Below, piece after piece: positions 2,685-29,701 of a DNA stretch of 64,000 nt. Location: NCBI GenBank assembly GCA_965207225.1, contig CBDBLV010000004.1, positions 704,001 through 768,000 on the forward strand, read 5' to 3'. The translations under genes were made by a program, and so were the position numbers. A model generated the notes under the pieces. The model did no database searches, was not told the DNA's origin, and saw only the letters and a list, made by a program, of their open reading frames with translations. The first letter of the stretch is position 1. Every line of letters begins with the position of its first letter. The DNA is from Dehalococcoidia bacterium. GTDB lineage: Bacteria > Chloroflexota > Dehalococcoidia > Plut-88900.

Positions 2685-3096
2685 CTATCGGCTGCGGGCG
2701 TTGACGACACGCGTGCGCACGATCTTGTCCCAGAGGCATTGGCGGTCGGCGTCCCAGACGCACCAAAGCGCCGCAACGACGAAGGTAGGCGTGAAGATGG
2801 CCCCGCCCGCCTGCTCTCCCAGCACAGCCACCAATACCCCATTGACCGCGCCGAAAACGATGCATCGCACGACCAGGTCCCTGATCAGCATCCAACCTAG
2901 GTCGGCCGATTGACCATCCCCACGGATGACGCGCGTACGCAGGAGCTGCTTCGGCGGGATCTGTCCGCCTCGCGCCGCGATCAGGTACCATATGCCCCAG
3001 CCGATGCCGAGCGTAAGCACGAATAGAAAGCAGTCGGAGGACGAATCCGGCGAGACGGCGGCCTTGGCTGGCAAGCTCCATGTCGCTGCTGCTCAT
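2685..3096 (-). pseudogene. RDD-family membrane protein, frameshifted by one extra base near 3036
   Basis: N-terminus MELASQGRRLAGFVL in one frame; remainder (DCFLFVL...LIRD...QCLWDKIVRTRVV) in another; GAGGAGG RBS before ATG 3096. Confidence 0.8.
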
Positions 3097-3105
3097 CCCC
3101 TCCTC

Positions 3106-3160
3106 TTACACCTCCAGCTTGAAGGACAAGCGGAAGGTTCTTGATTTTATCAAGTCTGGT
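3106..3160 (-). other. Serine-recombinase att half-site encoding an alternative recombinase C-terminal tail (PDLIKSRTFRLSFKLEV*)
   Basis: GTTCTTGATTTTATCAAGTCTGGT (3137-3160) differs by one base from 4989-5012 and resembles the 3' end of the recombinase at 31614-33260. Confidence 0.85.
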
Positions 3161-3320
3161 AGACATGGTGGCGGCCAGGCGATATATGGAGGCCACGGCG
3201 TCCATCCTGCGTATGAGCAGCGTCAGTCACTCCCTGTACATGGGGTAGGCCCGCACGAAGTCCGAGGGCGTGTCGAAGCGGAGGACCCACGCGGCTTCGT
3301 CGATGCCCTGGGCCGTCAGG
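3161..3320 (-). pseudogene. Internal fragment of a Replic_Relax-type relaxase
   Basis: FVRAYPMYRE*LTLLIRRMDAVASIYRLA aligns with LVRTHPVSAEWRRSLMERMDALDSIYRVA of 26644-28305; ends at the att half-site. Confidence 0.7.
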
Positions 3321-3576
3321 TGGTACTTCTGGCTGGCCGGCCAGTCAGCATCGGAAAGATGACGAGGGCCATTCCGTCGGAGAGCGTCAAAGTGACGCTC
3401 TTGCCGTAGCGGGACACGTTCGTGAAAGAGCGGTCCTCAATGTCCCCGGCCACGTCAATCTCGGATAGCGTCCGAAATACCGTTGGGCGGACGACGCGGG
3501 CAGAGACCACGGAAGCGCCCACCGCGCGGCGCTCCAGCACCTCGCGGACAATGGTGAGTTCCGGCGCCTCTGGCAC
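3316..3576 (-). pseudogene. N-terminal fragment of an Fpg/Nei DNA glycosylase
   Basis: MPEAPEL start, R.GK and MLTG motifs; truncated at about 80 aa. Confidence 0.75.
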
Positions 3577-3606
3577 GGGTTTCGTCCAGCCTGGTTTCTT
3601 ACATGG

Positions 3607-4611
3607 CTACGAACGTATTTGAAAACGGGGCACCCGACCAATACCCAACCAACATCTCAGTCTCTCTGCAATCTCAAGCCCGCCCACCATTCCGGCCGCC
3701 GGTAATGCAACCTCAATCATGAAGCTGAGCGGTGCCGAGAGCACATTCTCCGTGGAACCGCCTTGGTTCCCGAGTACTCCCAAGTTGATGAATATCCATA
3801 GCAACGCGAAGCCGGCAATGAACACGCAGAATATCAGCACTATCTCGATGGCGTACTTTAAGACCGGCAAATGTAATGAAGCCCATGATGCCCCCGTCAC
3901 TGCCAACCAAACTACGATTAGTGTCCAGAAGCGCCAATCCTCACTTTCGTCCAGGGCATCCACGGCAAGCACCAGCACGATGGCCGTGGATATGAATAGA
4001 AACGTGCCGACGAGAGTGCGCTTCCAATTCGACACTACCCAGGGAATCACCCAACGTACAAAGCCAGCGAGAGAGAGTAGTACTACCCATTCGTACACCG
4101 GCTCAGACGTGTCGGCATCGTCGACGTAGAATGCCCATAGCAGGAGAGCTAACCCGGCAAACACCAATCCGCCCCCTGCGACATCGAGCGCAGTTTTCTT
4201 CCAAGAGCTCTCGCGCGTTGCCTCTGGAGGGTCTTCTTTAGATGAGACGAACGATATGCCAGATATGACGAATAGTGCGCCCAAGATCAGGATCACTCCA
4301 GCGGTCCACCAGCGATACACATCGTCGCCAGGCTCCGGCGCAAGTACGAAGGGAACCCATAGCGCCCATGCGACGAAGAGGGCCCCAAGCGCAGTCGCGA
4401 CAAAGACCAACCCGTGGAATAGTCGGGGGTGAATCCTTGATTCAGGTGGCTCTACAGCTACAGAGGCAAGTATCGGCAGCACGGCGAGACCAGGCAGCGC
4501 CCACCAGAAGACCCACCGGGTTACTCCTTCGCCGATATCGACATCTTGCACGTAGTGTCCCCACAGGATAAAGCCAAAGCCTATGATCAGATAGAGGATC
4601 AGGAGCACCAA
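3607..4611 (-). CDS. Polytopic membrane protein of unknown function
   Basis: 334-aa ORF with about 10 hydrophobic segments. Confidence 0.8.
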   Translation of the reverse strand: MVLLILYLIIGFGFILWGHYVQDVDIGEGVTRWVFWWALPGLAVLPILASVAVEPPESRIHPRLFHGLVFVATALGALFVAWALWVPFVLAPEPGDDVYRWWTAGVILILGALFVISGISFVSSKEDPPEATRESSWKKTALDVAGGGLVFAGLALLLWAFYVDDADTSEPVYEWVVLLSLAGFVRWVIPWVVSNWKRTLVGTFLFISTAIVLVLAVDALDESEDWRFWTLIVVWLAVTGASWASLHLPVLKYAIEIVLIFCVFIAGFALLWIFINLGVLGNQGGSTENVLSAPLSFMIEVALPAAGMVGGLEIAERLRCWLGIGRVPRFQIRS

Positions 4612-4988
4612 GCCTGCCTTCTTCAGTCTGTCTCGCGTCAGTTGCGCATCTCCTCACACCTTCCGAACGCGGTTCGACAGTACAGAGTGTAACGTCATGG
4701 CGTGGCTGGCCCCATCGGTAATTCGGTTGGCCTGGGCTCGAGGGTTCGATAGGTTCCCGCGTTCGTGGAAATGACGAGCGGTTCCGTCTCCCGGCTACGC
4801 TCCTGGGCGGCCGCTGCTTTGTCAGTATCTGGTTGGGACACGTCTGCTCCTTTCCCGGGGCACTCTACCTTCAGTCAGGGAGCTCACACCACCTCAAATC
4901 TCTCGGGTTTTCCTATCCCCTCGGGTGTCCCATTATCGCTGACGGTCTACAGATTGGCTACAGGTCCAGAACGAGGGTAAGTGTGAAA

Positions 4989-5039
4989 GTTCTTGATTTT
5001 GTCAAGTCTGGTGGGCCTATTTTGACGGTAGACAGAACC
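4989..5039 (+). other. attL of ICE1 (hybrid site; core TGGTGG 5009-5014)
   Basis: GTTCTTGATTTTGTCAAGTC-TGGTGG-GCCTATTTTGACGGTAGACAGAACC; both arms recur, inverted, at 31668-31719. Confidence 0.9.
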
Positions 5040-5183
5040 GTCTTCGAATTGAGGCTGGGCAGTCTGTAAACCCACCGAAACGATGTTGCGTGGTCTCTCT
5101 TGGGCTGCCTACCAGCGTTGCGCCTATCGTGGCTTCCAGCATATTCAATGGGGCGCACGCATTCACAATCCCAGCATTTTGCG

Positions 5184-5606
5184 TCACTCGTGACTGCCTC
5201 TCAGCAGGGCGACGAATCCAGCCTGCTCAAAGTCTCGGTCGTAGGCGAGCGCCTCAGTCAGGTCACGTTCTTCCATTATGAGGAAGCTCGCGCAGTCCGT
5301 TAGGCTCCAGGTCTGATCCTGGCGTGCCTCGTATCGTCCCACCGCTGTCCAAAACTGGTCCTCAGTAAGCCAGACAACCTCAATGCTTGGTCTGCCACGA
5401 AGACTCTTCGCCCATTCAGTTGCACGCTGTCGCATGTACTCGCCACGGGTCGATGCGAAATTGAGTACCTCGACCACAACCATATGGGTCGTGACCAGTT
5501 GGTCCGCGATGGATTCTGAGCTCAAGTCGAGTGCGCGGGCGTGAAGGTCGTCTCGGTTGTCGAGTAGTGCGATCCAATATCCACTGTCAGCGAACACCAC
5601 ACGCAT
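5184..5606 (-). CDS. vapC: PIN-domain toxin (VapC family)
   Basis: VFADSG...VVEV...SLTDCAS...YDRDF acidic PIN motifs. Confidence 0.9.
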   Translation of the reverse strand: MRVVFADSGYWIALLDNRDDLHARALDLSSESIADQLVTTHMVVVEVLNFASTRGEYMRQRATEWAKSLRGRPSIEVVWLTEDQFWTAVGRYEARQDQTWSLTDCASFLIMEERDLTEALAYDRDFEQAGFVALLRGSHE

Positions 5607-5890
5607 TACGGTTCCTTCTTCGGATGACCGTACATGTAGTGTTTGTAGTTGACAGAGCCATCGGTGGGTCGGTCTCGTCCGTCATCCGGGTACTTCTCAA
5701 TGAGGTGCCTGGCCAACATTGACATGTCTCCGATAGCATTCGCGCCCTTCGCCGCGGCTTGAACGGGAATCTCCTCAATCACCAGGGCCACTTCCGCTCC
5801 CTCGGCAATGTCCAAGGGCTCCAGGGGCGTGAGAACGCCGTTGGAGTACTTGGCCTTCACGTTCGCAATCATGACGCTCCCCTCTGACAT
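5606..5890 (-). CDS. AF2212/DUF104-like antitoxin
   Basis: VKAKYSNGVLTPLEPLDIAEG motif; stop overlaps vapC start. Confidence 0.8.
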   Translation of the reverse strand: MSEGSVMIANVKAKYSNGVLTPLEPLDIAEGAEVALVIEEIPVQAAAKGANAIGDMSMLARHLIEKYPDDGRDRPTDGSVNYKHYMYGHPKKEP

Positions 5891-6010
5891 GGCTACGGCC
5901 TTCGGGCAACTCTCAGCGTCCTATGTGTGCTCAAGACCGTTCTGCCCTCATCATACTCCTGATGGCTGCTGATCATCAATGGAAACGCTGCCTTTTCTTG
6001 GTCGGCGCTA

Positions 6011-6040
6011 TTGACAACATCCGCTTCGGTGGTTTAAGGT
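6011..6040 (+). promoter_or_regulatory. Possible sigma70 promoter for the adhesin genes
   Basis: TTGACA-N18-TAAGGT in an AT-richer intergenic stretch. Confidence 0.35.
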
Positions 6041-6364
6041 AATAGGTGGATAGTAATGATACTATATCTCAATTATCAACGTAATGGTGGCCTTGCCCAC
6101 TGTCCGTGTCGAGACCGTACCTCGTCAATTGGACGCATACGAAGCTCAATACCAATGATCCGAACGTACTCCACGGTTGGCGACGACGGGAACAATGATA
6201 CTAAGACTCAACACGATGGCGGAAACGATAGCTGACGATTGTGATATCAGTCGTCCCGCACGGAGCAAAACCAGTGTAGAAACACGCACCCGTCTTGGGC
6301 GCGAGGCAAAGAACAACGAACCAACTCGATCTAGATTTCGAAAGCAAGGAAGCTAGGAGAATCG

Positions 6365-7999
6365 ATGAACAGCTTTACCAACGCATCAATGCCCCTGAAA
6401 CTCTTCGGCGTCGTCTTGGCGCTGGCCCTAGTAGCGGTGGCCGCCCTGTTGGTCACCCCCACCTCGGCGCAAAGCCCGGACAACACCTACGACGACCCGC
6501 AGCCTTGTGGGTTCGGCCAAGGCGCATCCACTGCATTCCAGGCCGAACCGCACGAGAAGACCACCGGCCACTACGCACTCTTTGACGCCTACTGGGAGGA
6601 TACGGGGCCGGATCAGGCGCAGACCCCAGGGCTGGACCCTGACCAAACCCCTGACAACACCGGCATCCTGCACACCAACGAGTGCCCGCCGCTGTTGACC
6701 ACCGAAACGCAAGACCTCCAAACCGTAACCACCCTGACCGACTCCGGCGTCGACATCGACGAGCTCATAATCCACGTCGAGAACTCGCGTCAGGCGACTG
6801 TGGTGGAGGGCAATCCGGATGATTTCAGCACCCACCATTTGCGTTTGGACCAGTACCCAGGGGTTCGTGACCACGCCAATGTTGGTGAAAAGGTCTGGTG
6901 GCTGCGGCTGGACGACCCCGACCTCAGCGGGGACCAGAAATCCGACCTCACCCTCGGATTCTCGACGCACCGATTCGACAAGAAGTACTGGACCAAGGTT
7001 AGCTACGAGTTCAGGCTCTTGCGCAACCCCGGCATTGCCCCGGGCGAGCATCCCCACCTCCTCGCCTACCGGGCGCGCCAGTCGGGTGTGCCCGGCGCGA
7101 CCAAGGTCTGGGACAGCGCTGAGGCAGGCATCGCATCCATGGAGATGGCGCCCGGCGAACTCATCAATGACCTACAGTGGGTCTTCACCAAGCCCGGGAC
7201 CTACGAAATATCTGCTCAACCCGTGGGGTACGTGCGCAACAAAAACCCTCACGCTGAAGGCGATGAGGAGTACGACGCGAACTGGAAGGCGATCAGTGCA
7301 AACGTCACCGAGGCCGGCGAGGTGAAAAAGTACGTCATCCACGTGGGGCCTCTCGTCGAGGTGGAGCCGCCACTATTGGGCGTCAGCCGCAGCGTGCCGG
7401 AAAACTCCCCGGCCGGGACCAACGTCGGCGACCCGTTCCTGGTCTACTCGGAAGCGAGTGATCTGGGGTACAGCCTCTCCGGCGTCGGCCACGAAAACTT
7501 CGTAGCAACGGCCACGACCGACGCGGACCCCTACGGCGTCCAAATCAAGGTGGCCGAGGGGGCCAGCCTGGACTACGAGACCAAGGCCACCTATGACCTC
7601 ACCTTGGGAGTGACAAACAAGATCGACCACGAGAGCAATCCCGACCCCACCGTAGACGACACCCTGGTGGTGCGGATCAGTTTGGACGACGTCGCCCCCA
7701 CCGTGAGCCTTGCAGTCGATAATGCCAGCCCGGCGGTGGGTGACACGGTGACCTTTAGGGCGGTGTTCCAACACTTCGAAGAAGTGGGAGAGTATCTGTA
7801 TGATTTCGACAGTCTGTCGAATTCCGATACCCTCACTGGGCGGGTTACCACCAACAACGCCATTGTGTACACCACCACCCGAAATAGCGCCCTAACGGAA
7901 ACTTTCACCTTCAGTGCCACTTACGACGTTGATGATGATGGCTCGAACCGACGTGTCATTCACGCCGAGAATGTCACCGTCACCTGGGGCAACCCGTAG
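6365..7999 (+). CDS. Secreted surface protein with TIGR03769/choice-of-anchor-M-like and cadherin-like domains
   Basis: Signal peptide; WVFTKPGTY motif; VPENSPAGTNVG...LDYETKATYDL cadherin motif. Confidence 0.8.
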   Translation: MNSFTNASMPLKLFGVVLALALVAVAALLVTPTSAQSPDNTYDDPQPCGFGQGASTAFQAEPHEKTTGHYALFDAYWEDTGPDQAQTPGLDPDQTPDNTGILHTNECPPLLTTETQDLQTVTTLTDSGVDIDELIIHVENSRQATVVEGNPDDFSTHHLRLDQYPGVRDHANVGEKVWWLRLDDPDLSGDQKSDLTLGFSTHRFDKKYWTKVSYEFRLLRNPGIAPGEHPHLLAYRARQSGVPGATKVWDSAEAGIASMEMAPGELINDLQWVFTKPGTYEISAQPVGYVRNKNPHAEGDEEYDANWKAISANVTEAGEVKKYVIHVGPLVEVEPPLLGVSRSVPENSPAGTNVGDPFLVYSEASDLGYSLSGVGHENFVATATTDADPYGVQIKVAEGASLDYETKATYDLTLGVTNKIDHESNPDPTVDDTLVVRISLDDVAPTVSLAVDNASPAVGDTVTFRAVFQHFEEVGEYLYDFDSLSNSDTLTGRVTTNNAIVYTTTRNSALTETFTFSATYDVDDDGSNRRVIHAENVTVTWGNP

Positions 8000-8005
8000 T
8001 ATCGG

Positions 8006-11000
8006 ATGGCGGTTGCTGTGGCCCTTAGGCTTGTAACGCTGTGCCTGTTTGCAGCGCTGGTCGCCATCGCGACCAGCGCTGCCGAGCCCGCTTTTGCTGC
8101 CCCCTCGCCCCCGGCGAGCAGCATCTCCCTGGACAGTCTGCCGAAGCCAAGAGGAACCTCAAATGTCTGGTGGGAGCTCTTCGTGCGCAACGATCCAGTC
8201 CCCGGTCACCCACCGGCGGCGGCTTATGATGTAGTCGTTCGCATTACCGCCACGGCCAATGGTCAGGAGTACAAGCAGCACACAACTGTTAGCAACCCTT
8301 CATCCGGGTACATTGACCGGGACCGTGGAGTGTGGGTCATCCCCTTTATACCACCGGGGGGCAGCGCTGACGTGATCATTCAGCCCGCAGCATTCTTTCC
8401 TCGATTCAATCAGGATACACCAGTCCGCCTGCACGCTGAATTGGTTTCACATCGTTACCTCGCCAGCGAAGCAGGCAGCCAAGGGAGTATTGAAACCGAG
8501 GATTGGTACATTAGGGCTGCGAATGCTTATCTTTTTGCATGGCCAGGTGCAGAAGTAGGCGTAAGAGTTCGCAGCCTTAACAACAGGGTTCCAGCGTTAG
8601 GTACGCAGACCACGTTTGATGTTCGTGCGATTAATGTACCCTACAATGACCCAGACCCAAGAGTTCTAATAGTACCAAGCAAGCAGATTGGCAAAGTATG
8701 GGATGTGAAGATCAAGATCGATCTTTCGCCGGGGTTGTCTTTAGCTCCCGGATGGACTGCGCCGACCGGCACATCCTTTGACGCCGAAAGCGGTATCTGG
8801 AATGTGGGGTTAATTAGTGGCACAAATACCGGTACGACAATGTCTTTGCCGGTACTCCTCGCCGCGGATAACGTTCCCTTGGAGCAGCGGTGCCTGACGG
8901 CGACGGTGGTGAGCTCCACACCCGACTTCGAGCTGGACCCGGGGGTGCTGGTGAACGACTTCTCCACCGAGTGCCTGGGCGAAGATCCGATATTGAACGA
9001 GGGCGATATTGCTGTTTTCAAGTACGTTTCCTGCGTTGGCCGCACATCTTACCCCTGCACCAGCGATGACACACTGGAATTGGTGGCAAAGCATGAAGCG
9101 GCATTCTGGCAGCCTGAAGATGTCATTGTCCAAGTCAGGGACGTCCAGGGAAGGGTTGAGGCGGGATGGAGCACCGGCAAGACGGCAAGGCACCTTGCTT
9201 CTGTTCCTTCGATCCCTGGTGTTGGTGTCATCTTCGAAGTCATTGATAGCGGGTACAACGCATACACTTTTGCAATTAGCGACGTGGTGCCAAAACAACG
9301 GCCCGGCAAATTTACAGTTGTGGCCGGCAACCAAGGAAACATTACCATCTTGGACGCCGACACAATGCTGTCCGCGGGACCGTACAACCTTAATGAACCA
9401 ATTCCCGCATTAGTAGTTTTCGGCACTTTGGGCACATATAAGGTAAAGATAACCGTTGGGGCTACCAAGTCGGGGACGGCGTACACCGACAGCGGCGTCT
9501 ACACCTTCCACGTGGGGCCGATAGCGGAGCTTGCGGTGCGGGACGGCGGTCGCAGCCCACTGGCGGCGCCGGACCAGCAAGCCTACACCATCCTCGCGGC
9601 CAACAACGGACCAGACGCGGCCTCGGCTGTGGTGGTAACCCTCACAGGCGTACCCCAGGGCGCGGAGGCCATCGTCAGTGGCAGCACCAAGCGCGTGGAC
9701 GACGAAGACGTCAGCGGCAGCGATGGAAGGTACGCGCAGGGCGACTGCGTAGACGGATTCTGCGAAGCCACCTGGACCATCGGAAAGATGTCCGTTTCCT
9801 CTGGCAGGACCTCCATCGGCAAGATGCCCTTCCCCACGCTGACCCTGATCGCCCCGGACGGCGCGTCCACGTCGGGCATTGAGGCCAGCATCGAAAGCAC
9901 CGAGCCCTACTCGGTTACCATCGACGGCACGGTCCACTCCACCGCCTACTTCGACTACATCGATGAGAACAACAGCGCTCACATCGCTGCCCGGGCCGGA
10001 GCCGGCGGGCCAGTGCCGGGAACGCCACAGGACCTGCAAGCGCAGTTCTACACCGTTCCATTCACGACCGCCCTCGTGTGGTGGACCGAGCTTGAGTCGG
10101 TGAACAGCTTCCCTGTGTCCCGCTACGAGGTGTTCACGGAGCGGCCGAATGGTGGAGCCTGCCAGGCGCCGAGTACGGACCAAGCGGGAGAGCGGCTCAC
10201 GGGAACGACGTACGCGGACCGCCGTGCGAAGGAGGGCGAGCTCACGTGCTACTACGTGCGGGCAGTGAATACTCATAAAGTTCCCGGCTACTGGGCGGGG
10301 CCGGTGATGGCGACCGGCGACAGCCCGGACCAGCCGCGGCTGTCGGTGCAGGGAGGCGATCCAGTCGACGAGGGCGACGCCGCCCAATTCACGGTCAGCG
10401 CCTCCCCGGCCCCCGCCGCCGGAGACAGTCTCACCTTTGGCTACACGGTGATCCAGCGTGGCGACTACGTAGCCGACAGAGAGTTGGGCCAGAAGCATGC
10501 AACCATAGGCAACAGCGGCCGCGCCACCATAACCGTCCTCACCGTGGGGAACGATACCGACGACGCCGACGGGGAGATATTCGTCACCCTGAACAACGGC
10601 GAGGGCTACACGGCGTCTTCGGACCGGTCGGCCAGTGTCGAGGTGAGGGACAACGACAATCCCGAGGTGTCCTTCGCCGACGACCCGGCCACGGCCACCG
10701 TGAGCGAGGGAGATGGCGGTTACGACGTGGTGGTCAACCTGGTTCCGGCGCCCCACGCCGCCACCACCATCAGGTACCAGATCGGGGGCGTCGCCGAGGC
10801 CGGCGAGGATTTCACGATCGGCGGCCTGAGCAACGGCTTTGGGTCGGTCTGGGTTGGACCCGGCTCGTCCAGCGTGAACATCCCCGTGCGGCTGATCAAC
10901 GACCGGGAGAGCGAGCAGGAGGATTTCCTGGACATCTACCTGCGCGCGGGAGAGAACTACGACGTGGGAACTCCGTCCCGCTACACGCTGACCATCACCG

Positions 11001-12808
11001 ACAACGACGGCCCCGGGGCGCAGTTCGCCCGGACCGATAGCGAGGTTGGCGAGTCCGACGGGAGCACGACTGTGACCGTCAACCTGGTCCCGGCGCCCAC
11101 CGAGGACGTGACCATAAACTACACCCTTGGCGGCGGCACGGCTCAGAGCGGCGACTACAGCATCGAAGGCTTAACCGGCTCTTCCGGGTCGGTGACGGTC
11201 TCCGCCGGGATCAACAGCGTCGGCATCCCGGTAACCATCAACCCCGACGGCGACTCCGAGCCCGACGAGACGGTGGTGCTGACGCTGGGGAACGGCTCGG
11301 ACTACACCGTCGGGACGACTCGGACGCACACGCTGACCATCCTGGACGACGACCGGCCGCGGGCCAGCTTCGCCTCCGATGCATCCAGCATCATGGAGGC
11401 GGACACCGAGCACCCCGTGAGGGTCAACCTCGACCCTGTGCCCACAGACAACCTGACCCTGAGCTACGGCTTGGCAGGCAGTACGGCCACGCGCAACCGG
11501 GACTACCGGGCGGATGGCACGGTGCAGGTGAACGCAGGCAATGACCACGTTCACATCCCGGTGGAGATCTTCCACAACGGCGAAAGCGAGCCGGACGAGA
11601 CTGTGGTTCTGACGCTGCGGGTCGGCTCGGGAAACAACGTGGGCGAAGAAAGCGTGCATACGCTGACCATCACGGACAACAACCTGCCTATGGTCGCCTT
11701 TGAGACGGCGGAGGGCAGCGTGAGTGAGACGGGCCGCACGCACCGGGCGGTCATCACCCTGGACCCGGCGCCCCACGAGGATCTCACCATCGGCTACACC
11801 GTTGGCGGCACGTCCACGGAGGGAGTGCACGGCCAGCACGGCCCAGGCGACGACTTCACCATCCGTGATTCAGGCACGGTCACGGTCCCGCCCGGACAGA
11901 CTCAGGCCTTCGTGCCGATAACCATCCTCAACGACTCGGACGCCGAGGGAGATGAGACTCTGACGCTGACGTTGACCGGCGGCGACGGCTACGCCCTCGA
12001 TACGTCGGCGAACATCTACGAGCTGACCATCCTGGACGACGACGCGCCGGAGGTATCCTTCACGGCGGCCTCGGGCGAGCCGGGCGAGGGCGCCGGCATG
12101 CACGTGGTGCGGGTCAGGCTGGACGGGCAGACGGACAATCCGGTGACAGTGGGCGTCAGCGTCAGCTTCCCGCCCAATATCGGCTCTGACAGCCCCGCTG
12201 ACCACAGCGCCATTCCCGGCAGCGTTACGATTCCGGCGGGTATGCTTGAAACCGAGATCGAGATAACCATCACCGACGACCCTGACAACGAGGCCGACGA
12301 GGTGGTCGTCCTGACTCTGGAGCCCGGCACGGGGTACTCCCTGTCGCAGGACAAGCCCACGGAGTACACGCTGACCATCGTGGACAACGACGCGGACGAG
12401 AACACCCCGGTGGCCAGTCGCGACCATCCCCATGCCCACGGGCAGGGCTCGACACATTTTGAAGTCTACGAAGGCCATACGCGGATCCCGACGTGGTACG
12501 TGACCGGGAACTTCGCGGGGGATGTGATCTTCCAGTACGTCGGCGGAACGGCGACCCTGGACGAGGACTTCCGCTTGTTCCGCATACAGGGTCAGATCGA
12601 GAAGGTGGGCGACACCTTCACGGTCCGGTCCCTTGACTCCCCCCACGACTCCGACAGGGAAGCGGGCCTCCGTTGGGCCAGGTTCACGTTCGACCCGATA
12701 CGAGACCAGGAGCGGGAAGGCGGCGAGACGGTTATCCTCCGGGTGCTGAACGGCCCGGGCTACACCGTCGAGGAGCCCACCGAGCTCACCATCACCATCA
12801 TTGACTAG
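8006..12808 (+). CDS. Large adhesin-like protein with DUF11, FN3-like and multiple Calx-beta repeats
   Basis: Signal peptide; NNGPDAA (DUF11); repeated D.ESEPDETVVLTL...HTLTILDDD units. Confidence 0.88.
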   Translation: MAVAVALRLVTLCLFAALVAIATSAAEPAFAAPSPPASSISLDSLPKPRGTSNVWWELFVRNDPVPGHPPAAAYDVVVRITATANGQEYKQHTTVSNPSSGYIDRDRGVWVIPFIPPGGSADVIIQPAAFFPRFNQDTPVRLHAELVSHRYLASEAGSQGSIETEDWYIRAANAYLFAWPGAEVGVRVRSLNNRVPALGTQTTFDVRAINVPYNDPDPRVLIVPSKQIGKVWDVKIKIDLSPGLSLAPGWTAPTGTSFDAESGIWNVGLISGTNTGTTMSLPVLLAADNVPLEQRCLTATVVSSTPDFELDPGVLVNDFSTECLGEDPILNEGDIAVFKYVSCVGRTSYPCTSDDTLELVAKHEAAFWQPEDVIVQVRDVQGRVEAGWSTGKTARHLASVPSIPGVGVIFEVIDSGYNAYTFAISDVVPKQRPGKFTVVAGNQGNITILDADTMLSAGPYNLNEPIPALVVFGTLGTYKVKITVGATKSGTAYTDSGVYTFHVGPIAELAVRDGGRSPLAAPDQQAYTILAANNGPDAASAVVVTLTGVPQGAEAIVSGSTKRVDDEDVSGSDGRYAQGDCVDGFCEATWTIGKMSVSSGRTSIGKMPFPTLTLIAPDGASTSGIEASIESTEPYSVTIDGTVHSTAYFDYIDENNSAHIAARAGAGGPVPGTPQDLQAQFYTVPFTTALVWWTELESVNSFPVSRYEVFTERPNGGACQAPSTDQAGERLTGTTYADRRAKEGELTCYYVRAVNTHKVPGYWAGPVMATGDSPDQPRLSVQGGDPVDEGDAAQFTVSASPAPAAGDSLTFGYTVIQRGDYVADRELGQKHATIGNSGRATITVLTVGNDTDDADGEIFVTLNNGEGYTASSDRSASVEVRDNDNPEVSFADDPATATVSEGDGGYDVVVNLVPAPHAATTIRYQIGGVAEAGEDFTIGGLSNGFGSVWVGPGSSSVNIPVRLINDRESEQEDFLDIYLRAGENYDVGTPSRYTLTITDNDGPGAQFARTDSEVGESDGSTTVTVNLVPAPTEDVTINYTLGGGTAQSGDYSIEGLTGSSGSVTVSAGINSVGIPVTINPDGDSEPDETVVLTLGNGSDYTVGTTRTHTLTILDDDRPRASFASDASSIMEADTEHPVRVNLDPVPTDNLTLSYGLAGSTATRNRDYRADGTVQVNAGNDHVHIPVEIFHNGESEPDETVVLTLRVGSGNNVGEESVHTLTITDNNLPMVAFETAEGSVSETGRTHRAVITLDPAPHEDLTIGYTVGGTSTEGVHGQHGPGDDFTIRDSGTVTVPPGQTQAFVPITILNDSDAEGDETLTLTLTGGDGYALDTSANIYELTILDDDAPEVSFTAASGEPGEGAGMHVVRVRLDGQTDNPVTVGVSVSFPPNIGSDSPADHSAIPGSVTIPAGMLETEIEITITDDPDNEADEVVVLTLEPGTGYSLSQDKPTEYTLTIVDNDADENTPVASRDHPHAHGQGSTHFEVYEGHTRIPTWYVTGNFAGDVIFQYVGGTATLDEDFRLFRIQGQIEKVGDTFTVRSLDSPHDSDREAGLRWARFTFDPIRDQEREGGETVILRVLNGPGYTVEEPTELTITIID

Positions 12809-12939
12809 AAGCAACCGGCCGGCGTCCCCACGGGGGCCATGGGCTGAAGGCGGCAGTTCGGCTGCCGACCATTGGACGCCAACGCGCCGGTGCCGATGCG
12901 GACTTGGTGAAACGCAAAGAGAGCGGGATACATGCCGGT

Positions 12940-12978
12940 AGAGAGGGAGGCCATCCAATTCGGATAGCCTCCCTCTCT
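12940..12978. terminator. Hairpin between convergent genes
   Basis: AGAGAGGGAGGC...GCCTCCCTCTCT inverted repeat. Confidence 0.65.
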
Positions 12979-12983
12979 TGTAC

Positions 12984-14141
12984 CTAAGCGGTCGCCGCCC
13001 CCGGCCGCATCAACAGTGCGGAGTAGCCCGGCGCCACCACGTGATCCACGGACACCTTCCCTGCGCCGTCGTACCCAGCGCGGAAGGCGTACTCCACCTC
13101 CGCGCCCCAGGGCACGCGCCCGCCGACGCGCACCGCACCGCCCCTGGCCGTGCCGTCTCTACCGCGAGCGCCGTGCACCACCATCCCGCTGCGCTCTCCC
13201 TTCTTCCAGCCCAGCACCTTCAAGGCCACGGGCATCACCCGCTCTTCCCCCTGCCTCCGCTGGAACAGCGCTCCGTGCAGCTTCTTGAGTACCGTAGCCG
13301 ACGGGTTGCGCTGGCCGTTCATGATCTGGGAGAGGTGGCCGGAGCTGATGCCCGCCCTACGCGCCACCTCGTTCTGGCTGACGTTCAACTCGTCCATCCG
13401 CTCCCAGATGAACTGCCGGTCTACGTCGGGGCACTGGGCGGACTCGACCTTCGCACGTCCCTCAAGCACGGCCTCGACCCTGGCCTGGAGCTTCACCCCC
13501 ATGCTACGGTGCCCTCTGGACACCTGGCTGAGGTACCCGGCGGACACTCCCACCTTCTCGGCCAGCTCCCTCATGGTTAGTCCGAGGGCGCGGGCGGTCT
13601 CCCTGATGAAGCTGCTGGCCTCACTCTCGATCACGTCACCCTGGCGGTTGGCGCACTGTGCGGGGGCGACCCTGGCCGGAGCGTTCAGGACCGACTCGAT
13701 GCTGGCCTGCACCTTGGGTCCCATGTTCCGGCGTCCCCTTGCCACCTGCGTCAAGTACGAGTAGCTCACGCCCGACCGGTCGGACAGTTCCAGCATGGTG
13801 ATTCCTATCTCGCGTGCGCGCTCCCGGATGAAGGTACTTTCTGCATCTACCTCGCGGGTCTGTCGGTAGACGATCCCCTGCCCAGGGACCTCTCCCAGCA
13901 CGGCCATCGCCTTCTCCCGCAGGTTGGGGGTCCAGGGCTTCTTGCCTGTGCCGACCTGGGACAGGTGGCTTGCGCTGACGCCCATCAGGGCCGCAAGCTC
14001 CTTCAAGGTGAGGCCGCGCTTCCTGGCGGCGGCCCTGAGCTCGCTCTCGGGCCTGCCCCTGCGCTCGGCGGTCTCCGCCGCATCCGTCGTGGTTTCCGTG
14101 TCCTTGGTCCGATTGGTCGTCGTGGTGGTTGCCGTCGTCAT
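12984..14141 (-). CDS. Regulator with four tandem XRE helix-turn-helix domains and a beta-rich C-terminal domain
   Basis: Four GLT..ELA...GVS..HLSQ-type repeats; AAAGGAG RBS. Confidence 0.88.
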   Translation of the reverse strand: MTTATTTTTNRTKDTETTTDAAETAERRGRPESELRAAARKRGLTLKELAALMGVSASHLSQVGTGKKPWTPNLREKAMAVLGEVPGQGIVYRQTREVDAESTFIRERAREIGITMLELSDRSGVSYSYLTQVARGRRNMGPKVQASIESVLNAPARVAPAQCANRQGDVIESEASSFIRETARALGLTMRELAEKVGVSAGYLSQVSRGHRSMGVKLQARVEAVLEGRAKVESAQCPDVDRQFIWERMDELNVSQNEVARRAGISSGHLSQIMNGQRNPSATVLKKLHGALFQRRQGEERVMPVALKVLGWKKGERSGMVVHGARGRDGTARGGAVRVGGRVPWGAEVEYAFRAGYDGAGKVSVDHVVAPGYSALLMRPGAATA

Positions 14142-14157
14142 GTCGCTTCTCCTTTCA

Positions 14158-14245
14158 ATGAAGAAGCGGGACGGCCTACCACCCCCGTGGGGTGGAGACA
14201 GTCCCGCTCGAATTGGTTGTCCCGAATGCCGGGACTGTCTCCGTG
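14158..14245 (-). promoter_or_regulatory. Structured leader (attenuator-like), copy 1
   Basis: Mutually exclusive stems GAGACAGUCCCG/CGGGACUGUCUC and GCGGGAC/GUCCCGC-UUCUUC; conserved at 41793-41866. Confidence 0.6.
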
Positions 14246-14313
14246 GGTTTTGTGTTGTCGTTGTGGCCGATGGCCGGCTGCGGCGTCCTCCGTGTCGCTG
14301 TACTGGGCAGGCT

Positions 14314-14367
14314 CTACGTGGGGAAGCCGTGTGCGGGCAATGTCAGTGCCCGTCGTGCGTTGGGCAT
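14314..14367 (-). CDS. Putative 17-aa leader peptide MPNARRALTLPAHGFPT
   Basis: AGGAGG-N4-ATG; stop codon about 70 nt before the structured leader. Confidence 0.35.
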   Translation of the reverse strand: MPNARRALTLPAHGFPT

Positions 14368-14600
14368 AGTTCCTCCTGGGTGGGTGAGTGGATGGGTGGT
14401 GCGGGACTGGGTCCCGCAAGCAAGGGGCGGAGCGGTCAGGCTCCGGCGTGGCAAACGATGTGGAGAGTCGGAACGAGGGGAGCGCTAGCTAGCGGCGCAC
14501 TCGGCCCAAGCAAGCAGGTGTAAGAAGGCAGCGCGTCCTCGCCCGGGTTGCAAGAACAACCGCGCCGCCGATGCGACCGAGGAGGGTGCGGAGAGCCGGG

Positions 14601-15104
14601 TCAAGGGCAAGCCTTCGCTAGAGCCTGCCTCGTACTCGATACGAGAGGCTGGAGGCCCCGGAGGCTGCGCTCCGAGACCAACTTGCCGGGCCGCCAGCGC
14701 ATCCCCAGGACCGCAGCCACCTCCAGCGTCCCGTCGCCGTGGGGAACCAGCGCCGAGACCCTGCCCGTGCCCTGGCTGTAGAGCACGGCGTTCTGGTCCC
14801 CGAACCGCCGCTTCACCAATGCCTTCCACTCGGAGAAGGCCCAGCGAGCCTCCCTCGGCGTGGCCTGCGCCACGTTCGCACTGCCCAGCGCCGCCAGCGC
14901 CCCGTCCACGTCCCCCGCCTGCCTGAGCCGCCGAGCCTCGTGGATGGAGCGGGTTGCGCTCCGCTCAACCGGGTGAGTCTCCGTCTCCCCCGTGAATCCC
15001 ATCGCCGCGAACACCCGGTCCACCAGTTCCTCCAAGCTGCGCCGGGGCCGCATCGTCTCCGTGTCCATCGTCTGTCCGTGAGTCGCCAATGTCGCCGTCG
15101 TCAT
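14601..15104 (-). CDS. Conserved ICE hypothetical protein
   Basis: AGGAGG RBS; truncated paralogue at 41529-41726. Confidence 0.75.
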   Translation of the reverse strand: MTTATLATHGQTMDTETMRPRRSLEELVDRVFAAMGFTGETETHPVERSATRSIHEARRLRQAGDVDGALAALGSANVAQATPREARWAFSEWKALVKRRFGDQNAVLYSQGTGRVSALVPHGDGTLEVAAVLGMRWRPGKLVSERSLRGLQPLVSSTRQALAKACP

Positions 15105-15232
15105 CGTGCACCTCCTACGTGCCTGTGTGTTGCCTTGAATCCGTTACGCCCGCTTTCGGGCAAAGAAGTAGGGGCCGCCCTCGGAGAGAGCGACCCCTGC
15201 GTGTTGTGATGGGTTGTGAGAGCCCGAAGCCG

Positions 15233-15748
15233 TCAGCGTCTGAGTCTGCGGACCGTGCGCCGGGGCATGAACCGCCTGAGCAGCAGCCAGCCGATGCCCA
15301 GACCGAACAGGTTCAGGAAGAACAGCTCCAGGTCGAGGGTGAGCAGCGGCGCGGCGACGACCAGGGCGACGACCCCGGCCACCACGACCTTCTTCCGCTT
15401 CCACCAGGGTTTCTTGGCCTCAGCCCCAACCGCCGCGTCCCTGACCGGCTCGTAGGCCGTCCAGATCGGCAGACCGGTGAGGGCCTCAAGCTCGGTGACT
15501 ATCACGCCGCGACCGCAGCCCCGTGTGTGGCACCGTACGTCGATGCCGTTGCCGTCGGGTCGCTGCCGAAACGCCAGCCCGTCGGACTTCCCGCCGTGGC
15601 ACACCGCCGTGCTGGTCCAGAACCAGCCTCTGTCGAAGCTGACGCGATGCGCCAGCAGGTCTGCGATCCGCGCCGCGCTGGGTCCGGTGTACCGTTCCGC
15701 CATGCTCGTACCTCCTTCTCCGTTGTCCTGTGTCCTTGATTCGTCCAT
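15233..15748 (-). CDS. Hypothetical protein: Zn-binding-like N-terminus (CHGG...CHTRGC) plus two TM helices
   Basis: AAGGAGG RBSs before ATG 15748 and ATG 15703; Cys/His pattern resembling primase zinc-binding domains. Confidence 0.7.
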   Translation of the reverse strand: MDESRTQDNGEGGTSMAERYTGPSAARIADLLAHRVSFDRGWFWTSTAVCHGGKSDGLAFRQRPDGNGIDVRCHTRGCGRGVIVTELEALTGLPIWTAYEPVRDAAVGAEAKKPWWKRKKVVVAGVVALVVAAPLLTLDLELFFLNLFGLGIGWLLLRRFMPRRTVRRLRR

Positions 15749-16415
15749 GTGCGTTACCTCCTTCTGTGTTGTGTGCCGTTGACTCCGTTCCTAAGACGCA
15801 CCCGGACCGCCAGCGATGCAAACGCATGGGAGACCGGGGTGAAAGAAGACGCAGCTCGCCCAAGGTGAAGTCGGTCAGTGGGGAAGAGTTGCGAGACGTG
15901 AAGCGGCCAGCCTGCTCGGAGCGGCAGACCGGCGCGTGTCGTAGCTGCGGTGTAGCCGCGTGCCAGCCATCCCGCAGACGTGTCGAACTGGCCGAGGCGA
16001 CAGGCGCACTTCGACCAGTTTGCCGGGGACGAGGCGCTCATGCGCACCCGTCCTCCTTGGCCCAACGGATGAGGCGATCAACCCCAGCCGTCAGACCTAT
16101 GCCCAGCGGGTGAGGGATCAACGTCAAACTTCAACCGCCGGACTGAGCCGGGGACGGAGGCCCTTGCGTCAACTCCGTCGAATCGGCCCGCGCTGGTTGC
16201 GAAGGACCAACGTCAAACTCCGCATTGCCAGCATTCCCTCTTGGGCGAAGCCCGTGCAACAGGGATCACGCACCCAGGTTTCTATGGTCGGAAACCTTGG
16301 AGAAAGCCAAACAGTGGGGTCATTATCGCAGGTCTCCGACGCCGAAAAGACCCCACGCATGCCCCCACCCTGAGAATTGCTCTGGGGTTCACTCCCGCAT
16401 CGGCAACGCCGGGCG

Positions 16416-17261
16416 CTACTGCGAGGGCCGCCGCCACCTCAGAGTGAGCGCCCGCCACACCTTGGTCACGACCTCGCGCCTGGCCCGCGCTCTCCGCGTG
16501 TCGAAGAGGGCCTTCCTGCGCCAGCTGACCTGGCCGCTGCGGTCGAGGCCGTGCAGGGGCTGCTTCTCCGGAGGCAGCGTCATCCCGTGCTCCTCCAGCA
16601 ATGCAAGCTCCATCTCCAGCAGCCGCTCCCGCTCCATAAGCCAATCAAAGCCCTTCCCCTCGTTGGGGTGAGACTCCTTCAATTCCCGCCACAGGGCGAT
16701 CAGGGACCAGGCGTCTCCGAAGACCTCCTCGTCGTCATCGGCAGGCTCAAGGGTCACCAGATCGGGGTACTCGCGCCGCATCGACGACTTTGACGCAGGA
16801 CTTCCTTCGCTCACTGACCCTGCATCATCGCCTTCCTGGGAGGGACCGGCGCCGGCGTGACCGGCCCCGGTCGTCTTCGGACTCACTGTGCCCTCCTTTG
16901 CCAGAGCCTCCACCGCGCCCTCCACCCTGGACAGCCGCCTGCGCGCCTCCTTGCCCAGCGACTCCATCCCGCTCTCCAACTCCCCCAGGCGCTCCTCCAG
17001 GGCGTCGTTGCGCTCTCGCTGACGGGCCGCCGCAGAACCCACGCCCTCCTGCAAGGCCCGCTCCAGGGACTCCCGCATCCGCCGCGACAGCCTCCCCGTC
17101 CTGGCGCTCTCGGCCACCGTGCGCTGGTCGATCTCCAACACCCGCGCCGCGCCCTTGTATCCCCGCTCCCACACCAGCTCTTGCAGCAACGTCATGAGCC
17201 GCATGTGGTACATGTTCTCGATGTCTCTGCTGTCCTCGATGCCGTGTTCGGTCGTCTTCAT
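16416..17261 (-). CDS. HTH plus coiled-coil conserved ICE protein
   Basis: AARVLEIDQRTVAES HTH; full paralogue at 39966-40799. Confidence 0.85.
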   Translation of the reverse strand: MKTTEHGIEDSRDIENMYHMRLMTLLQELVWERGYKGAARVLEIDQRTVAESARTGRLSRRMRESLERALQEGVGSAAARQRERNDALEERLGELESGMESLGKEARRRLSRVEGAVEALAKEGTVSPKTTGAGHAGAGPSQEGDDAGSVSEGSPASKSSMRREYPDLVTLEPADDDEEVFGDAWSLIALWRELKESHPNEGKGFDWLMERERLLEMELALLEEHGMTLPPEKQPLHGLDRSGQVSWRRKALFDTRRARARREVVTKVWRALTLRWRRPSQ

Positions 17262-17346
17262 GGCAATTTCCTCCTTCTCCGAAGACTCGTTCCAGCTATG
17301 AATTCCACCAAGTCCGTGATTCGCACGATCTCTCGCCTCGCGTAAC

Positions 17347-17572
17347 GCACCCCCACCTCAAGCGGACTTTTCGGCCGTTTTTGTCATCGGGCCGTCGATT
17401 TTGGCCGCGTCATGCACCCCCACTTCAAGCCTCTTTTTGTCATTGGAGACCGGACTCCGCCCTTTCATCAGATTGCTCACCGTTCACCTCCTGTAGAGGG
17501 GGTTTTGCCCCTGATTTAGCTACGAAATCACGACTTTGACCACTCAGTCACAAAAGTCCATTTCCTGTACAC
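17347..17572 (-). promoter_or_regulatory. Conserved cis-element with direct repeats (oriT candidate)
   Basis: GTGTACAG-N35-GATTTCGTAGCT (minus strand, 17572-17518); GCACCCCCACYTCAAGC at 17347 and 17414. Confidence 0.5.
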
Positions 17573-17719
17573 CCCCAATACTGCACGAAACGGGCCTCAG
17601 ATAAGAGGGCATGGATGGTGCCACCATGCGTGGGGTCTTTTTCGGCGTTTGATTTGTTCACACTCTCTGTCGAGGGCTGCGATCCGGCGAATCGCGGCAA
17701 ACCACGAGAGGTGAACATC

Positions 17720-18325
17720 TTGGCGCAGAAATCGAAGCTCCGGTCAAATGGCCGGCTCATTCCGCTGGCGATTGCGTTGCTGCTGGCGGCGCTGGTCGCC
17801 GTCCCCACCAGCAACCTCGCCCTGGCCCAATCGCCGCCCGCTGGCGACATCACCCTGGTCAACACCGACAGAGAATTCGTCGAGCGCAAGAAGGGCGGCG
17901 AGTTCGTCGCACGGCCCCTCTTCGACCGCAAGCTCCAAGACCTCTTCTACGCCGTTCGCGACGCCGACACCGGCGACTGGATATCCGCCATGTACCGGGT
18001 CAGGGGCGGCGAGAAGAAGCGCTCAGACGGCTGAGAGTACTCCTGGGAGTATCCCAGGCTGGACGAGCAGCCCGACCTCGACCCCGACAGGGCCTACCTG
18101 CTGGTCATGCTGGCTCACGCCGAGGACGGCAAGCAGGGAGACTTCTACGCCGTCGTCCCCATCCACGAGCCGGGACGCATCTGGGACAAGATTCTGAGCG
18201 CCCTCAACCCCTCCCGTTGGGCCAGGGCCGCAGCCGGGTGGGTGATCGAGGGAGTCCACGGGACGCTGTGCGGCGTGGTGGAGCGGGCCTCGGGCGAGGA
18301 CGCCGACAACTGTGAGGGGAGTTAG
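17720..18325 (+). pseudogene. Secreted protein heading the transfer operon, with an in-frame TGA at 18032
   Basis: Signal peptide; ORFs 17615-18034 and 18107-18325 share a frame, separated by a single stop. Confidence 0.7.
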
Positions 18326-18328
18326 CTC

Positions 18329-19298
18329 ATGAGCGACATCCTCACCGGGACTCCTCCCGACCTCACCTACGCCCACGACCTTGTCCAGCAGGCGTGGATG
18401 GTCGTCTGGGCCGTCACGTCCGGCGCCCTAATCGTGATCCTGGGCTGGATGGGCCTCTCGCTCATCGTGTCCGAGCACCTCGGAAGGTCTCAGACAGGTT
18501 GGCGGGAGATGGTCCCCAGGCTCGTCCTCGGCCTCGTTGCAGCGGCGTCGTCCCTGTGGTGGTGCGCCCTGGTCATCGACGTTGCCGACGCCGTGTCCGG
18601 CTTCGTCGCGGTATCACTGAACGTCACCGCTCCGTTCAACCCTCAAGACTCTGCTCACCGCAGTTCAGGCGGGGAGCGTGGGCATGGCGTTGCTGCTGGC
18701 CCTTCTCTACCTGGTCTACGGTTTCTTCGTCCTCTACGTCATCGTGCAGATGATCCTGCGCCTTGCGTTGATCGACATCCTGCTGGCGTTGGCCCCCATA
18801 GCCCTGGGGCTGTGGATTCTGCCGCACACGGCGGGCTGGGGGCGGCACTGGCTCAGGCTCTTCATGACGACCACCTTCCAGCAGGCGATCCAGCTCATCG
18901 CCCTGGCGTTGGGATTCGGGTTCCTGAACGAGGTCGCCGCCATCGCTGCCTTCGAGCCGGTGCAGGACCTGGTGTGGAAGCTGTTGATGTCGTTGGCCTT
19001 CGTCTACATGGCGACCAGGGTGCCGTCCCTTCTTGGCAACGCCGGCACCTTCGACGCCTGGCTGTCCACCCTCTACTTCGGGATGAACCTGCCCGCCTCG
19101 ATGGTGCGGTCGGCCCGGACCATCGGGCTTTTGGCCGGAGGAGCGGCGGGAGGCCCGGGCGGCGTTGCGGTGGGCGCGGTTGCCGCCAGCGCGGGGCTGT
19201 CGGCGGCGGCTGGCGGCCTCAGCTCGGCGGCTTCCATGGCCACCCCGTCGGGCGGCGGTGACGCGGGCAGCGAGGCCCCCAGGAGCGCCGGCGAGTGA
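18329..19298 (+). pseudogene. VirB6/TrbL-like membrane protein, frameshifted near 18630
   Basis: Hydrophobic halves in two frames; LLALAPIALGLWILPHT..W..W motif; Gly/Ala-rich tail. Confidence 0.8.
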
Positions 19299-19453
19299 TC
19301 TCAAGGACAACGACGACGAAATCACAGAGGAGCGGCCCAATCCGTGCCGACCGAACCCGCAACGGAGGCAGAGCGATGTGCATGTGACGGAGCTGACGGA
19401 CACCGACCGAGAGAGACGAGCGGAAGGCTCGAAGAACGAGAGGAGAAAAACAG

Positions 19454-19735: not shown

Positions 19736-19766
19736 GAGCACGTGAGGAAGGAAAGGGGGGAAAAGA

Positions 19767-21784: not shown

Positions 21785-21805
21785 TGAGAAAAGGAAGCGA
21801 ACGAA

Positions 21806-24100: not shown

Positions 24101-24115
24101 GGAGGAGTAACAGAA

Positions 24116-29693: not shown

Positions 29694-29701
29694 AGAGGAG
29701 A

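Follow-up and report, generated by a model that had tools for sequence, protein, structure and literature searches.

The closest described system to the one discussed here is that of the genomic islands at ssrA in Dehalococcoides. According to the available text of McMurdie et al. (2011, PMC3146451), the 3′ end of the dsiB gene of these islands always overlaps attL, and its stop codon lies outside the island; the islands occur in tandem, some of them without an integrase, and it was proposed that the integrase gene is perhaps complete only on the circle or beside a neighbour that provides a 3′ gene fragment. The same text cites the CcrAB and CcrC recombinases of the staphylococcal cassette chromosome mec (SCCmec) as a homologue class of such large serine recombinases (LSRs) (PMC3146451). 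Here, we describe a locus of similar layout in a window of 64,000 nt, taken from contig C4 of a sponge-associated Dehalococcoidia metagenome-assembled genome (MAG; 4.03 Mb in 5 contigs, with a contamination of 8.3%). The window holds two LSR genes, which we label recA (A-type) and recB (B-type), three copies of a short repeated arm and a stretch of 1,852 bp (3163-5014, hereafter the module; Table 1). We consider it probable, if well short of certain, that the arms are half-sites of B-type LSRs and that the module is a recombinase-less unit placed by LSR-mediated recombination.

The layout is shared with the Dehalococcoides ssrA islands, since there too the 3′ end of the gene lies over the attachment site and both tandem and integrase-less islands occur. 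As in the available description of the DsiB islands, an LSR of ~540 aa is found at the edge of our islands; the 3′ end of its gene overlaps the attachment site, and the stop codon is reached only beyond the island. Unlike the DsiB islands, which target ssrA, these islands are found at tRNA 3′ (CCA) ends and at the 3′ ends of sister recombinase genes; there is no nearby small serine recombinase of the DsiA kind in the window locus, the genome holds 33 LSR copies, and the tails separated from the genes are conserved in length and pattern, resembling true C-termini. A tblastn search with both LSRs over C4 655,000-772,000 (E <= 1e-3) matched nothing but the two LSR genes themselves. In G025, a genome of the same class with a size of 1.5 Mb, the homologue of the window recombinase is an open reading frame (ORF) of 541 aa that overlaps the transfer-messenger RNA (tmRNA) gene by 68 bp, and the window LSR is 31% identical to this ssrA-overlapping LSR over residues 26-338.

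Other island systems share some of these properties. Prochlorococcus tycheposons are tRNA-targeting cargo islands with stacked insertions and degenerate remnants, and, in the available text of the preprint, 27 of 937 carry an LSR; mostly, tycheposons use tyrosine recombinases, with partial-tRNA repeats as attachment sites (bioRxiv 10.1101/2020.12.28.424599). Our islands are like them in being stacked, tRNA-targeting cargo islands that leave remnants, and unlike them in having the attachment site inside the recombinase gene, an arrangement for which we found no report in the tycheposon text available. SCCmec elements are islands moved by LSRs; they insert into the 3′ end of a gene (rlmH/orfX), pile up in composite or tandem form and include some derivatives without ccr genes. 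Judged by description only, they resemble our islands in their insertion into gene 3′ ends, their stacking and their recombinase-less derivatives, and they differ from them in that the Ccr attachment site lies outside the ccr gene and the target is rlmH/orfX; to our knowledge, the targeting of a sister recombinase is no described feature of SCCmec. Among the papers listed by narrow literature searches, there was no description of recombinase-in-recombinase nesting or of mini-modules of this kind.

Table 1. Features of the locus, in window coordinates.
Feature	Position	Strand	Content and basis
RDD-family membrane protein gene	2685..3074	(-)	TTG start; Pfam PF06271, E = 2.4e-10; first gene downstream of tail 1
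Tail 1	3106..3136	(-)	Last 9 codons + stop (FRLSFKLEV-stop) of B-type LSR frame; translation
Half-site 1	3137..3160		20 nt L arm + TGGT, up to crossover position
Junction 1 central dinucleotide	3161..3162		AG in window and G031; GG in 6 other genomes
Module left end, internal MarR/Replic_Relax fragment	3163..3341	(-)	~residues 59-118; tblastn, paralogues
Fpg/Nei N-terminal fragment	3316..3576	(-)	86 aa ORF; Pfam PF01149, E = 2e-13, profile positions 1-81 of 117
334-aa polytopic membrane protein gene	3607..4611	(-)	Only intact gene of the module
Tail 2	4958..4988	(-)	FTLTLVLDL-stop; translation
Site 2	4989..5038		50 bp hybrid, L arm - TGGT GG GCCT - R arm; central GG 5013-5014
Element A	5009..31694	(+)	26.7 kb multi-copy island: PIN/AF2212-like pair, Replic_Relax (26644-28305), A-type LSR
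A-type tail	5040..5069	(+)	VFELRLGSL-stop, in phase with R arm; ORF 4833-5069
A-type LSR gene body (recA)	30070..31692	(+)	Pfam Resolvase + Recombinase + Zn_ribbon_recom
B-type LSR gene (recB)	31614..33287	(-)	Pfam Resolvase + Recombinase + Zn_ribbon_recom; convergent and overlapping with A-type gene
Site 3	31669..31718		50 bp hybrid, R′ arm - ATGGT GG ACTG - L′ arm; central GG 31693-31694

Both window LSRs carry the PF00239 catalytic domain (E = 2.8e-34 and 1.7e-33), with the motif YARVSSDRQ in each, as well as PF07508 and PF13408, and relatives in the PDB (SPbeta integrase) align to residues 68-413. The two genes meet at site 3: the frame of recA crosses the site and continues for ~110 codons through antisense recB to 32043, and recB crosses it from the other side and stops at 31614, giving an overlap of ~100 bp at a joint hybrid site. 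The sites are composed of arms, which we name L and L′ for the two halves of B-type sites and R and R′ for those of A-type sites, with C and E denoting further types. The L arm contains a 20-mer, GTTCTTGATTTYRTCAAGTC, that is found in the window at 3137-3156 (+), 4989-5008 (+) and 31699-31718 (-), with no match in any of 100 shuffles. The first two copies, which the initial annotation had reported as arms of the same orientation ~1.85 kb apart, are real, and their surroundings agree at 26 of 28 positions (3133-3160 against 4985-5012).

Sites 2 and 3 are each bounded by GTTCT...AGAAC, and both have the central GG on the + strand. As they stand, their left and right halves match at only 13 and 14 of 24 positions, while exchanging halves between the two sites raises this to 21/24 in each; 20,000 random 50-mers gave a mean of 6.35 (standard deviation 2.2, maximum 15). 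Because the halves are poorly symmetric as found and nearly symmetric once swapped, we read the two sites as attL/attR hybrids of two palindromic parents, with the crossover predicted at the central GG. One parent would be R′-GG-R, situated in the 3′ end of an A-type gene whose native tail is now at 5040-5069; the other would be L-GG-L′ in the equivalent part of a B-type gene, with a tail of the kind found at 4958-4988 behind it. Element A, an A-type island, would then have recombined with a B-type site, giving sites 2 and 3. Site 2 has a double role, closing the module on its right side and joining element A on its left. Elsewhere, copies of element A begin at the nucleotide corresponding to 5009 and end at that corresponding to 31694, and a full second copy is found at C5 2003423-2032347. 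Given that sites 2 and 3 have equal polarity, integration and excision would be expected rather than inversion. Thus, the proposal in the initial annotation that the arms belong to a serine recombinase has held up, in the form of half-sites with displaced C-terminal tails.

Some further observations concern element A and its surroundings. The first genes inside its left end, at 5184-5890 (-), encode the PIN-domain and AF2212-like pair, probably a toxin-antitoxin system. Beside recB lies a 185-aa C-terminal fragment of another Replic_Relax gene (34926-35483, -), and a third, full-length Replic_Relax paralogue is found upstream, at window coordinates -9009 to -7468. Three contig ends of the MAG (C3 start, C2 start and C4 end) fall within copies of element A, and the island family is probably a limit on MAG contiguity.

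The window is one instance of a large family. Scanning the genome gave 33 LSR genes and two fragments; 20 of the genes are A-like, including one with an N-terminal truncation, and 13 are B-like, including one with a frameshift. The L arm was matched 29 times when up to 4 mismatches were allowed, 2 of these matches being doubtful, and the R arm ~25 times. All sites have in common the core TGGTGGGCC, which is the complement of a tRNA 3′ end (GGCCCACCA), and each site, when oriented on this core, is a combination of a few arm types. The attachment site, ~50 bp in length, is an imperfect palindrome around GG and lies within the last ~35 codons of the recombinase gene; given this position, integration would split off the last 17 codons, which we call the tail. 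Elements are located at tRNA genes and inside sister recombinase genes. For instance, an A-type arm lies 3 nt past the CCA in 6 of the 50 tRNA/tmRNA genes predicted by ARAGORN (Ile, Ala, Lys, Gln, Val and Met), the tmRNA gene of this genome (C1 198772-199125) having no adjoining arm, and 7 convergent A/B pairs like that of the window are present. Among Dehalococcoidia MAGs, the family is common: more than 400 stretches were matched in other genomes, and 80 homologous loci were kept for a neighbour census. Of these loci, 26 adjoin antisense tRNAs, 15 converge with B-type genes by way of an L′ arm, another 15 are paired with other partners, the core is inverted in 10, and the criteria used gave no arm plus core in 14. 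Across the genome studied here, arms are found at the ends of islands, where their neighbours are LSR genes, tRNA genes or the tails of other islands.

The tails themselves appear to be more than incidental reading frames. On the minus strand, 3106-3159 codes for PDLIKSRTFRLSFKLEV-stop and 4958-5011 for PDLTKSRTFTLTLVLDL-stop, each a peptide of 17 residues made up of a tail and part of the arm, and the two are equal in length and reading phase; the initial annotation had described a homologous tail. The palindrome itself would encode a putative strand-turn-strand peptide, VLxxVK-GGP-xLTxxRT. The A-type tail has identical copies at C3 11494, C5 2003433 and C5 379103. Among the B-type tails of the genome, all 13 are equal in length and show an alternating hydrophobic pattern, RTF-x-L-x-[FLV]-x-L-x-[VL]-stop, that is kept despite nucleotide divergence. 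This conservation of length and pattern argues that the tail is real coding sequence, which would be restored on the island circle or beside a suitable neighbour.

The module consists of a relaxase fragment, an Fpg fragment, the gene for a 334-aa membrane protein, tail 2 and an L arm. The relaxase fragment, which the initial annotation had correctly recognised, aligns (3161-3341, -) to residues ~59-118 of the 553-aa MarR/Replic_Relax protein encoded elsewhere in the window (26644-28305) and to residues 43-106 of a paralogue; the ORF at 3316-3576 is the start of an Fpg/Nei protein and not relaxase. The only Pfam match of the membrane protein is a holin-like one below threshold (20.1 bits against a cut-off of 28.4), and tblastn with both window LSRs found no LSR homology inside 3163-5014. 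Both ends of the module fall at a crossover dinucleotide: the right end is a canonical half-site, and the left end breaks at the dinucleotide in a non-canonical sequence. The Fpg fragment and the membrane protein gene (3336-4692) have relatives at 77-79% DNA identity in G085 and G213, which belong to another family of the class, and this pair may represent the ordinary chromosomal source of the module cargo.

That these 1,852 bp form a unit is indicated by other genomes. When these were scanned for exact matches to the left-end pattern of the module, 7 loci were found (in G008, in G031 and at five further loci, L095 and L097-L100), all with the identical left end point, and the module recurs with unchanged ends, at 97-99.9% identity, in these 7 genomes and in three sponge metagenomes. 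In G008, which is of the same genus, window 3162-5016 is present at 97% identity, and no other homology was found between this 4.8 kb locus and the first 36 kb of the window. On the right, tail2-L-TGGT GG is followed there by the antisense 3′ end of tRNA-Val(tac), and, on the left, a C-type tail and a tRNA-like piece ending in ...TTAGAT GG precede a relaxase fragment that starts at the identical nucleotide; a 25.9 kb stretch delimited by recB and tRNA-Val has the module at its tail end. The five further loci lie in five genomes, carry 3159-5015 at 97.9% and have another tail and then ...CTCGAGT GG on the left and a third right neighbour, GG GTTGTCTCG..., on the other side; because they have 500 nt of right flank in common at 99.8-100%, we count them as one context or event. 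In G031, positions 1-5016 of the window are matched contiguously at 98%, site 1 and its AG included, and the module is 99.9% identical; homology ends at 5016, beyond which element A is replaced by an E-type arm and an LSR gene in antisense orientation with 64% identity to the A-type. The right limit of homology is thus 5015/5016 in G008, in G031 and in the five other genomes.

Contigs from the three metagenomes, which come from three studies, span 3158-5016, 3346-5016 and 3238-5013 at ~98%; in one of these contigs, a C-type tail directly abuts 3158. In one further study, four runs contain 88-94% of the words sampled from window 1500-7500. In its other contexts, the module has GG at both ends and at least 3 different neighbours per side. 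Invariant ends, GG at both of them and differing neighbours lead us to treat the stretch as one unit, and, in this respect, part of the cassette idea of the initial annotation holds: 3163-5014 behaves as one recombination-delimited unit. In wider samples of 12 order-level and 401 class-level genomes, the full module was found only in G000 and G008, the remaining carriers being known from the pattern scan.

Some features of these neighbours are described here for their own sake. A tRNA-3′-like motif, GTTCGA(A/G)-N11-GG, is found ~50 nt downstream of several C-type tails (C5 404984, C5 1469214 and C5 442091; L087/L088 in G008), its GG occupying the position of the last two acceptor-stem bases, which is the place of crossover in real tRNA targets. 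In G008, the module is joined exactly behind the GG of such a motif. In the genome studied here, the orthologue of the G008 tRNA-Val locus (C5 130086-130504) has other islands in it. We also considered that the original target was a tRNA within the window, and none was found there.

Site 1, at the left border of the module, differs from its relatives. Among the tail-bearing L arms, 11 of 12 run on as TGGT GG (G/A)CC, and site 1 alone reads TGGT AG ACA (then TGG...). Likeness to the arm stops just before the predicted crossover dinucleotide, and likeness to the relaxase starts just after it; at the matching position, 10 relaxase paralogues have GG (6), CG (2), TG (1) and AG (1). Tail 1 is intact and in phase to join a B-type body, but it is orphaned, as no recombinase body lies in frame upstream of it. 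Site 1 would be the tail-end junction of a B-type island to its left, with the RDD gene, a Uma2 gene and further genes, whose recombinase end is missing. Since its crossover position reads AG instead of GG, site 1 is now probably frozen. The initial annotation had the RDD gene start directly after the tail; the ATG at 3096 is in another frame than the RDD ORF, although an assembly frameshift is possible. A decayed tail with an RDD paralogue, 74.5% identical, is found at C3 46158-46623.

The initial annotation had also offered the reading that a family member's left end was inserted into the relaxase gene of a sister. A tail-end junction does meet a relaxase fragment exactly at the crossover, which agrees with part of this proposal, but the fragment belongs to the module, as its identical end in 7 other genomes with other left neighbours indicates, and is not a local target. 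The distant recombinase and remaining relaxase sequence that such an insertion would predict upstream were not found either: the rest of the relaxase gene was not found upstream of site 1, and contig C4 has no family LSR genes between 29,111 and 734,070, which includes ~680 kb upstream. Two more tail-type left ends of A-like islands, at C4 664769 and 681915 (window -39231 and -22085), point towards the window, and no recombinase genes lie between them and site 1. With two such ends and no recombinase before site 1, the upstream 40 kb as a whole resemble a pile of island remnants that lack recombinases.

The history that we favour can be outlined as follows. The module would be a derivative of a B-type island that lost its recombinase and kept one canonical half-site (tail 2 plus L) together with a cryptic half-site in the relaxase gene fragment. 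It would have recombined with a junction of the form tail1-L-GG-x, either as a small circle that was mobilised in trans and then integrated or by flank exchange at both ends, and the outcome would be two co-oriented copies of tail plus L acting as attL-like and attR-like sites. The direct-repeat appearance of tail and arm would follow from the incoming and the resident left halves both being L arms. What we observed directly is the architecture of the sites, the census of copies, the precise break points and the recurrence of the module in other contexts; catalysis by a B-type enzyme and the circular intermediate, like the functional meaning of tail exchange considered below, are proposals drawn from sequence, as is all of the mechanism. 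Pavlovic et al., in 2004, reportedly described tandem accretion and cis-mobilizable elements (CIMEs) for ICESt1-type elements. The module would be like a CIME in being a recombinase-less stretch between attachment sites that the enzyme of a related element may move, its mobility being presumed here; unlike CIMEs, which depend on tyrosine integrases, it has a non-canonical half-site inside a gene fragment at one end.

Several observations weigh against this account. The left end of the module (ACATGGTGGCGGCC...) is unlike the L, R or C arms, and its independent contexts are 3 from genomes and 1 from a metagenome contig, not more. Exact-pattern scans of genome contigs for an empty target site, with tail 1 and with the left neighbour in the five genomes, gave occupied loci only, and two pattern scans of metagenome contigs for empty sites had no matches. 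No circular or deletion joint from ~3160 to ~5013 was seen among the joints listed for metagenome contigs, which is weak evidence, as contigs drop rare variants; the reciprocal product, a relaxase C-terminal part joined to L′-recB, was not seen among the left flanks of the B-type sites of the genome. The lack of a family LSR gene in the long upstream stretch of C4 also counts here, as does the pre-insertion site of element A (tail2-L-GG-L′-recB), which was not observed. Moreover, recB of the window has only 78% DNA identity to recB of the module-bearing G008 island, so the two have different origins; the idea that recB and tail 2 of the window were one intact island split by element A was rejected on the same grounds, given the 97% identity of the module. 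Finally, since the contigs of this MAG break inside copies of element A, linkage across element A in the window has the support of a single contig.

The rival that we take most seriously, while holding it to be unlikely, is tandem accretion followed by deletion. In that case, 3163-5014 would be the tail-proximal remnant of a full B-type island that was never mobile alone, left by one deletion from a pseudo-site in the relaxase gene to the junction of the next island, with neighbours changed by the traffic of other islands. Accretion would explain the lack of empty sites, it suits both the non-canonical left end and the place of the G008 module at the end of a longer stretch, and tandem arrays and integrase-less islands are known at Dehalococcoides ssrA, as far as the available text goes (PMC3146451). 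What it does not explain readily is that the left neighbour changes at the identical nucleotide in three genome contexts and one metagenome contig, which implies at least 2 further exchanges exactly at the non-canonical joint, or that GG is found at both ends in every other context. In requiring repeated exchange at that joint, accretion comes close to the mechanism of LSR-mediated placement. Much less probable is a programmed switching of tails, comparable to that of cassette arrays or shufflons, in which 3106-3159 and 4958-5011 would be stored alternative C-termini that the LSR at 31614-33287 picks up by recombination to give enzyme variants: both tails are intact and in the right phase for the B-type body at the crossover, and tail length is conserved, but there are two tails only and no array, the central dinucleotide of site 1 is mismatched, and the tails lie genome-wide at island ends, as simple integration predicts. 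Furthermore, because all three sites have the same polarity, the use of either tail would irreversibly delete 26.7 or 28.5 kb.

The integron-like array proposed in the initial annotation is not supported, as the arms are at island ends without regular spacing and the window holds three arms only, two of them co-oriented. Integrons use the tyrosine integrase IntI and folded single-stranded attC sites, and their cassettes stand in ordered arrays behind one promoter. Our locus is like integron cassettes in that short recombination sites bound co-oriented genes, and unlike them in that its arms are associated with serine recombinases and no ordered array was seen. Still less probable than tail switching is an inversion switch in which the arms at 4989 (+) and 31699 (-) flip the intervening 26.7 kb. 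These two L arms are indeed inverted, but the polarity of serine recombinase sites is set by the central dinucleotide, and sites 2 and 3 carry their GG on one and the same strand, with TGGT plus A/G-G of site 1 likewise on the + strand; both sites are also L/R hybrids that become near-perfect palindromes after swapping halves, and other copies of element A lie at unrelated sites with the same ends. Chance similarity or a mis-assembled joint is the most improbable explanation of all. The level of contamination, the number of contigs and the breaks in repeats would speak for mis-assembly, but the absence of any match in the shuffles argues against chance, the contiguous G031 sequence refutes mis-assembly for 1-5016, and an independent metagenome contig spans 3158-5016.

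Apart from the island junctions, the left edge of the window holds a gene for a large Pro/Thr-rich TolB-like surface protein (2-1702, minus strand). It contains a 367 bp repeat (206-572 against 881-1247, 97% identical) and tandem repeats with a period of ~132 bp, and a further repeat match joins 1-182 to upstream C4 703404-704050. A run of ~11 G at 1647-1657 lies upstream of the 567-aa ORF, and one contig from the probable source run has an additional G after 1646, which may reflect a homopolymer length error or a variable tract.

On a wider scale, it is possible, although we put this forward only tentatively, that LSR placement of the module is part of a self-targeting island network with a state-sensing tail and mini-modules moved in trans. 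Since each LSR gene ends in a palindromic site with a core like a tRNA 3′ end, sister islands may use one another's recombinase genes as landing pads, which would explain the convergent overlapping pairs (7 loci here and 15 of the 80 elsewhere). The tail of 17 codons, which is exchangeable, may sense the state of an island (circle, tRNA-integrated or nested) and thereby tune recombinase activity or direction, and modules such as 3163-5014 may be moved in trans via one canonical arm and one cryptic half-site. In mycobacteriophages with integration-dependent immunity, the subject of work by Broussard et al. in 2013, attP is said to lie inside the repressor gene and the integrase to be of the tyrosine type. 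There as here, integration alters the C-terminus of a protein, the repressor in that case and the recombinase in ours, and any regulatory effect of such a change in our islands is hypothetical.

The 2011 finding in Dehalococcoides that the attachment site of a serine integrase cuts the very gene encoding it is extended by these results to a far larger family, whose targets are tRNA genes and its own members and which is present in many uncultured Dehalococcoidia, including sponge-associated ones. The results account for the odd overlapping convergent recombinase genes and read-through ORFs of these genomes, as well as for the places where assemblies of these MAGs break, and they fix the borders of islands exactly, which is of use in annotation. 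For genome engineering, new candidate LSR/att pairs are possibly offered by the arms and the tRNA-like core. Moreover, given that the family offers natural pairs of one enzyme with different C-terminal tails, the role of the tail in recombinase activity and directionality becomes testable.

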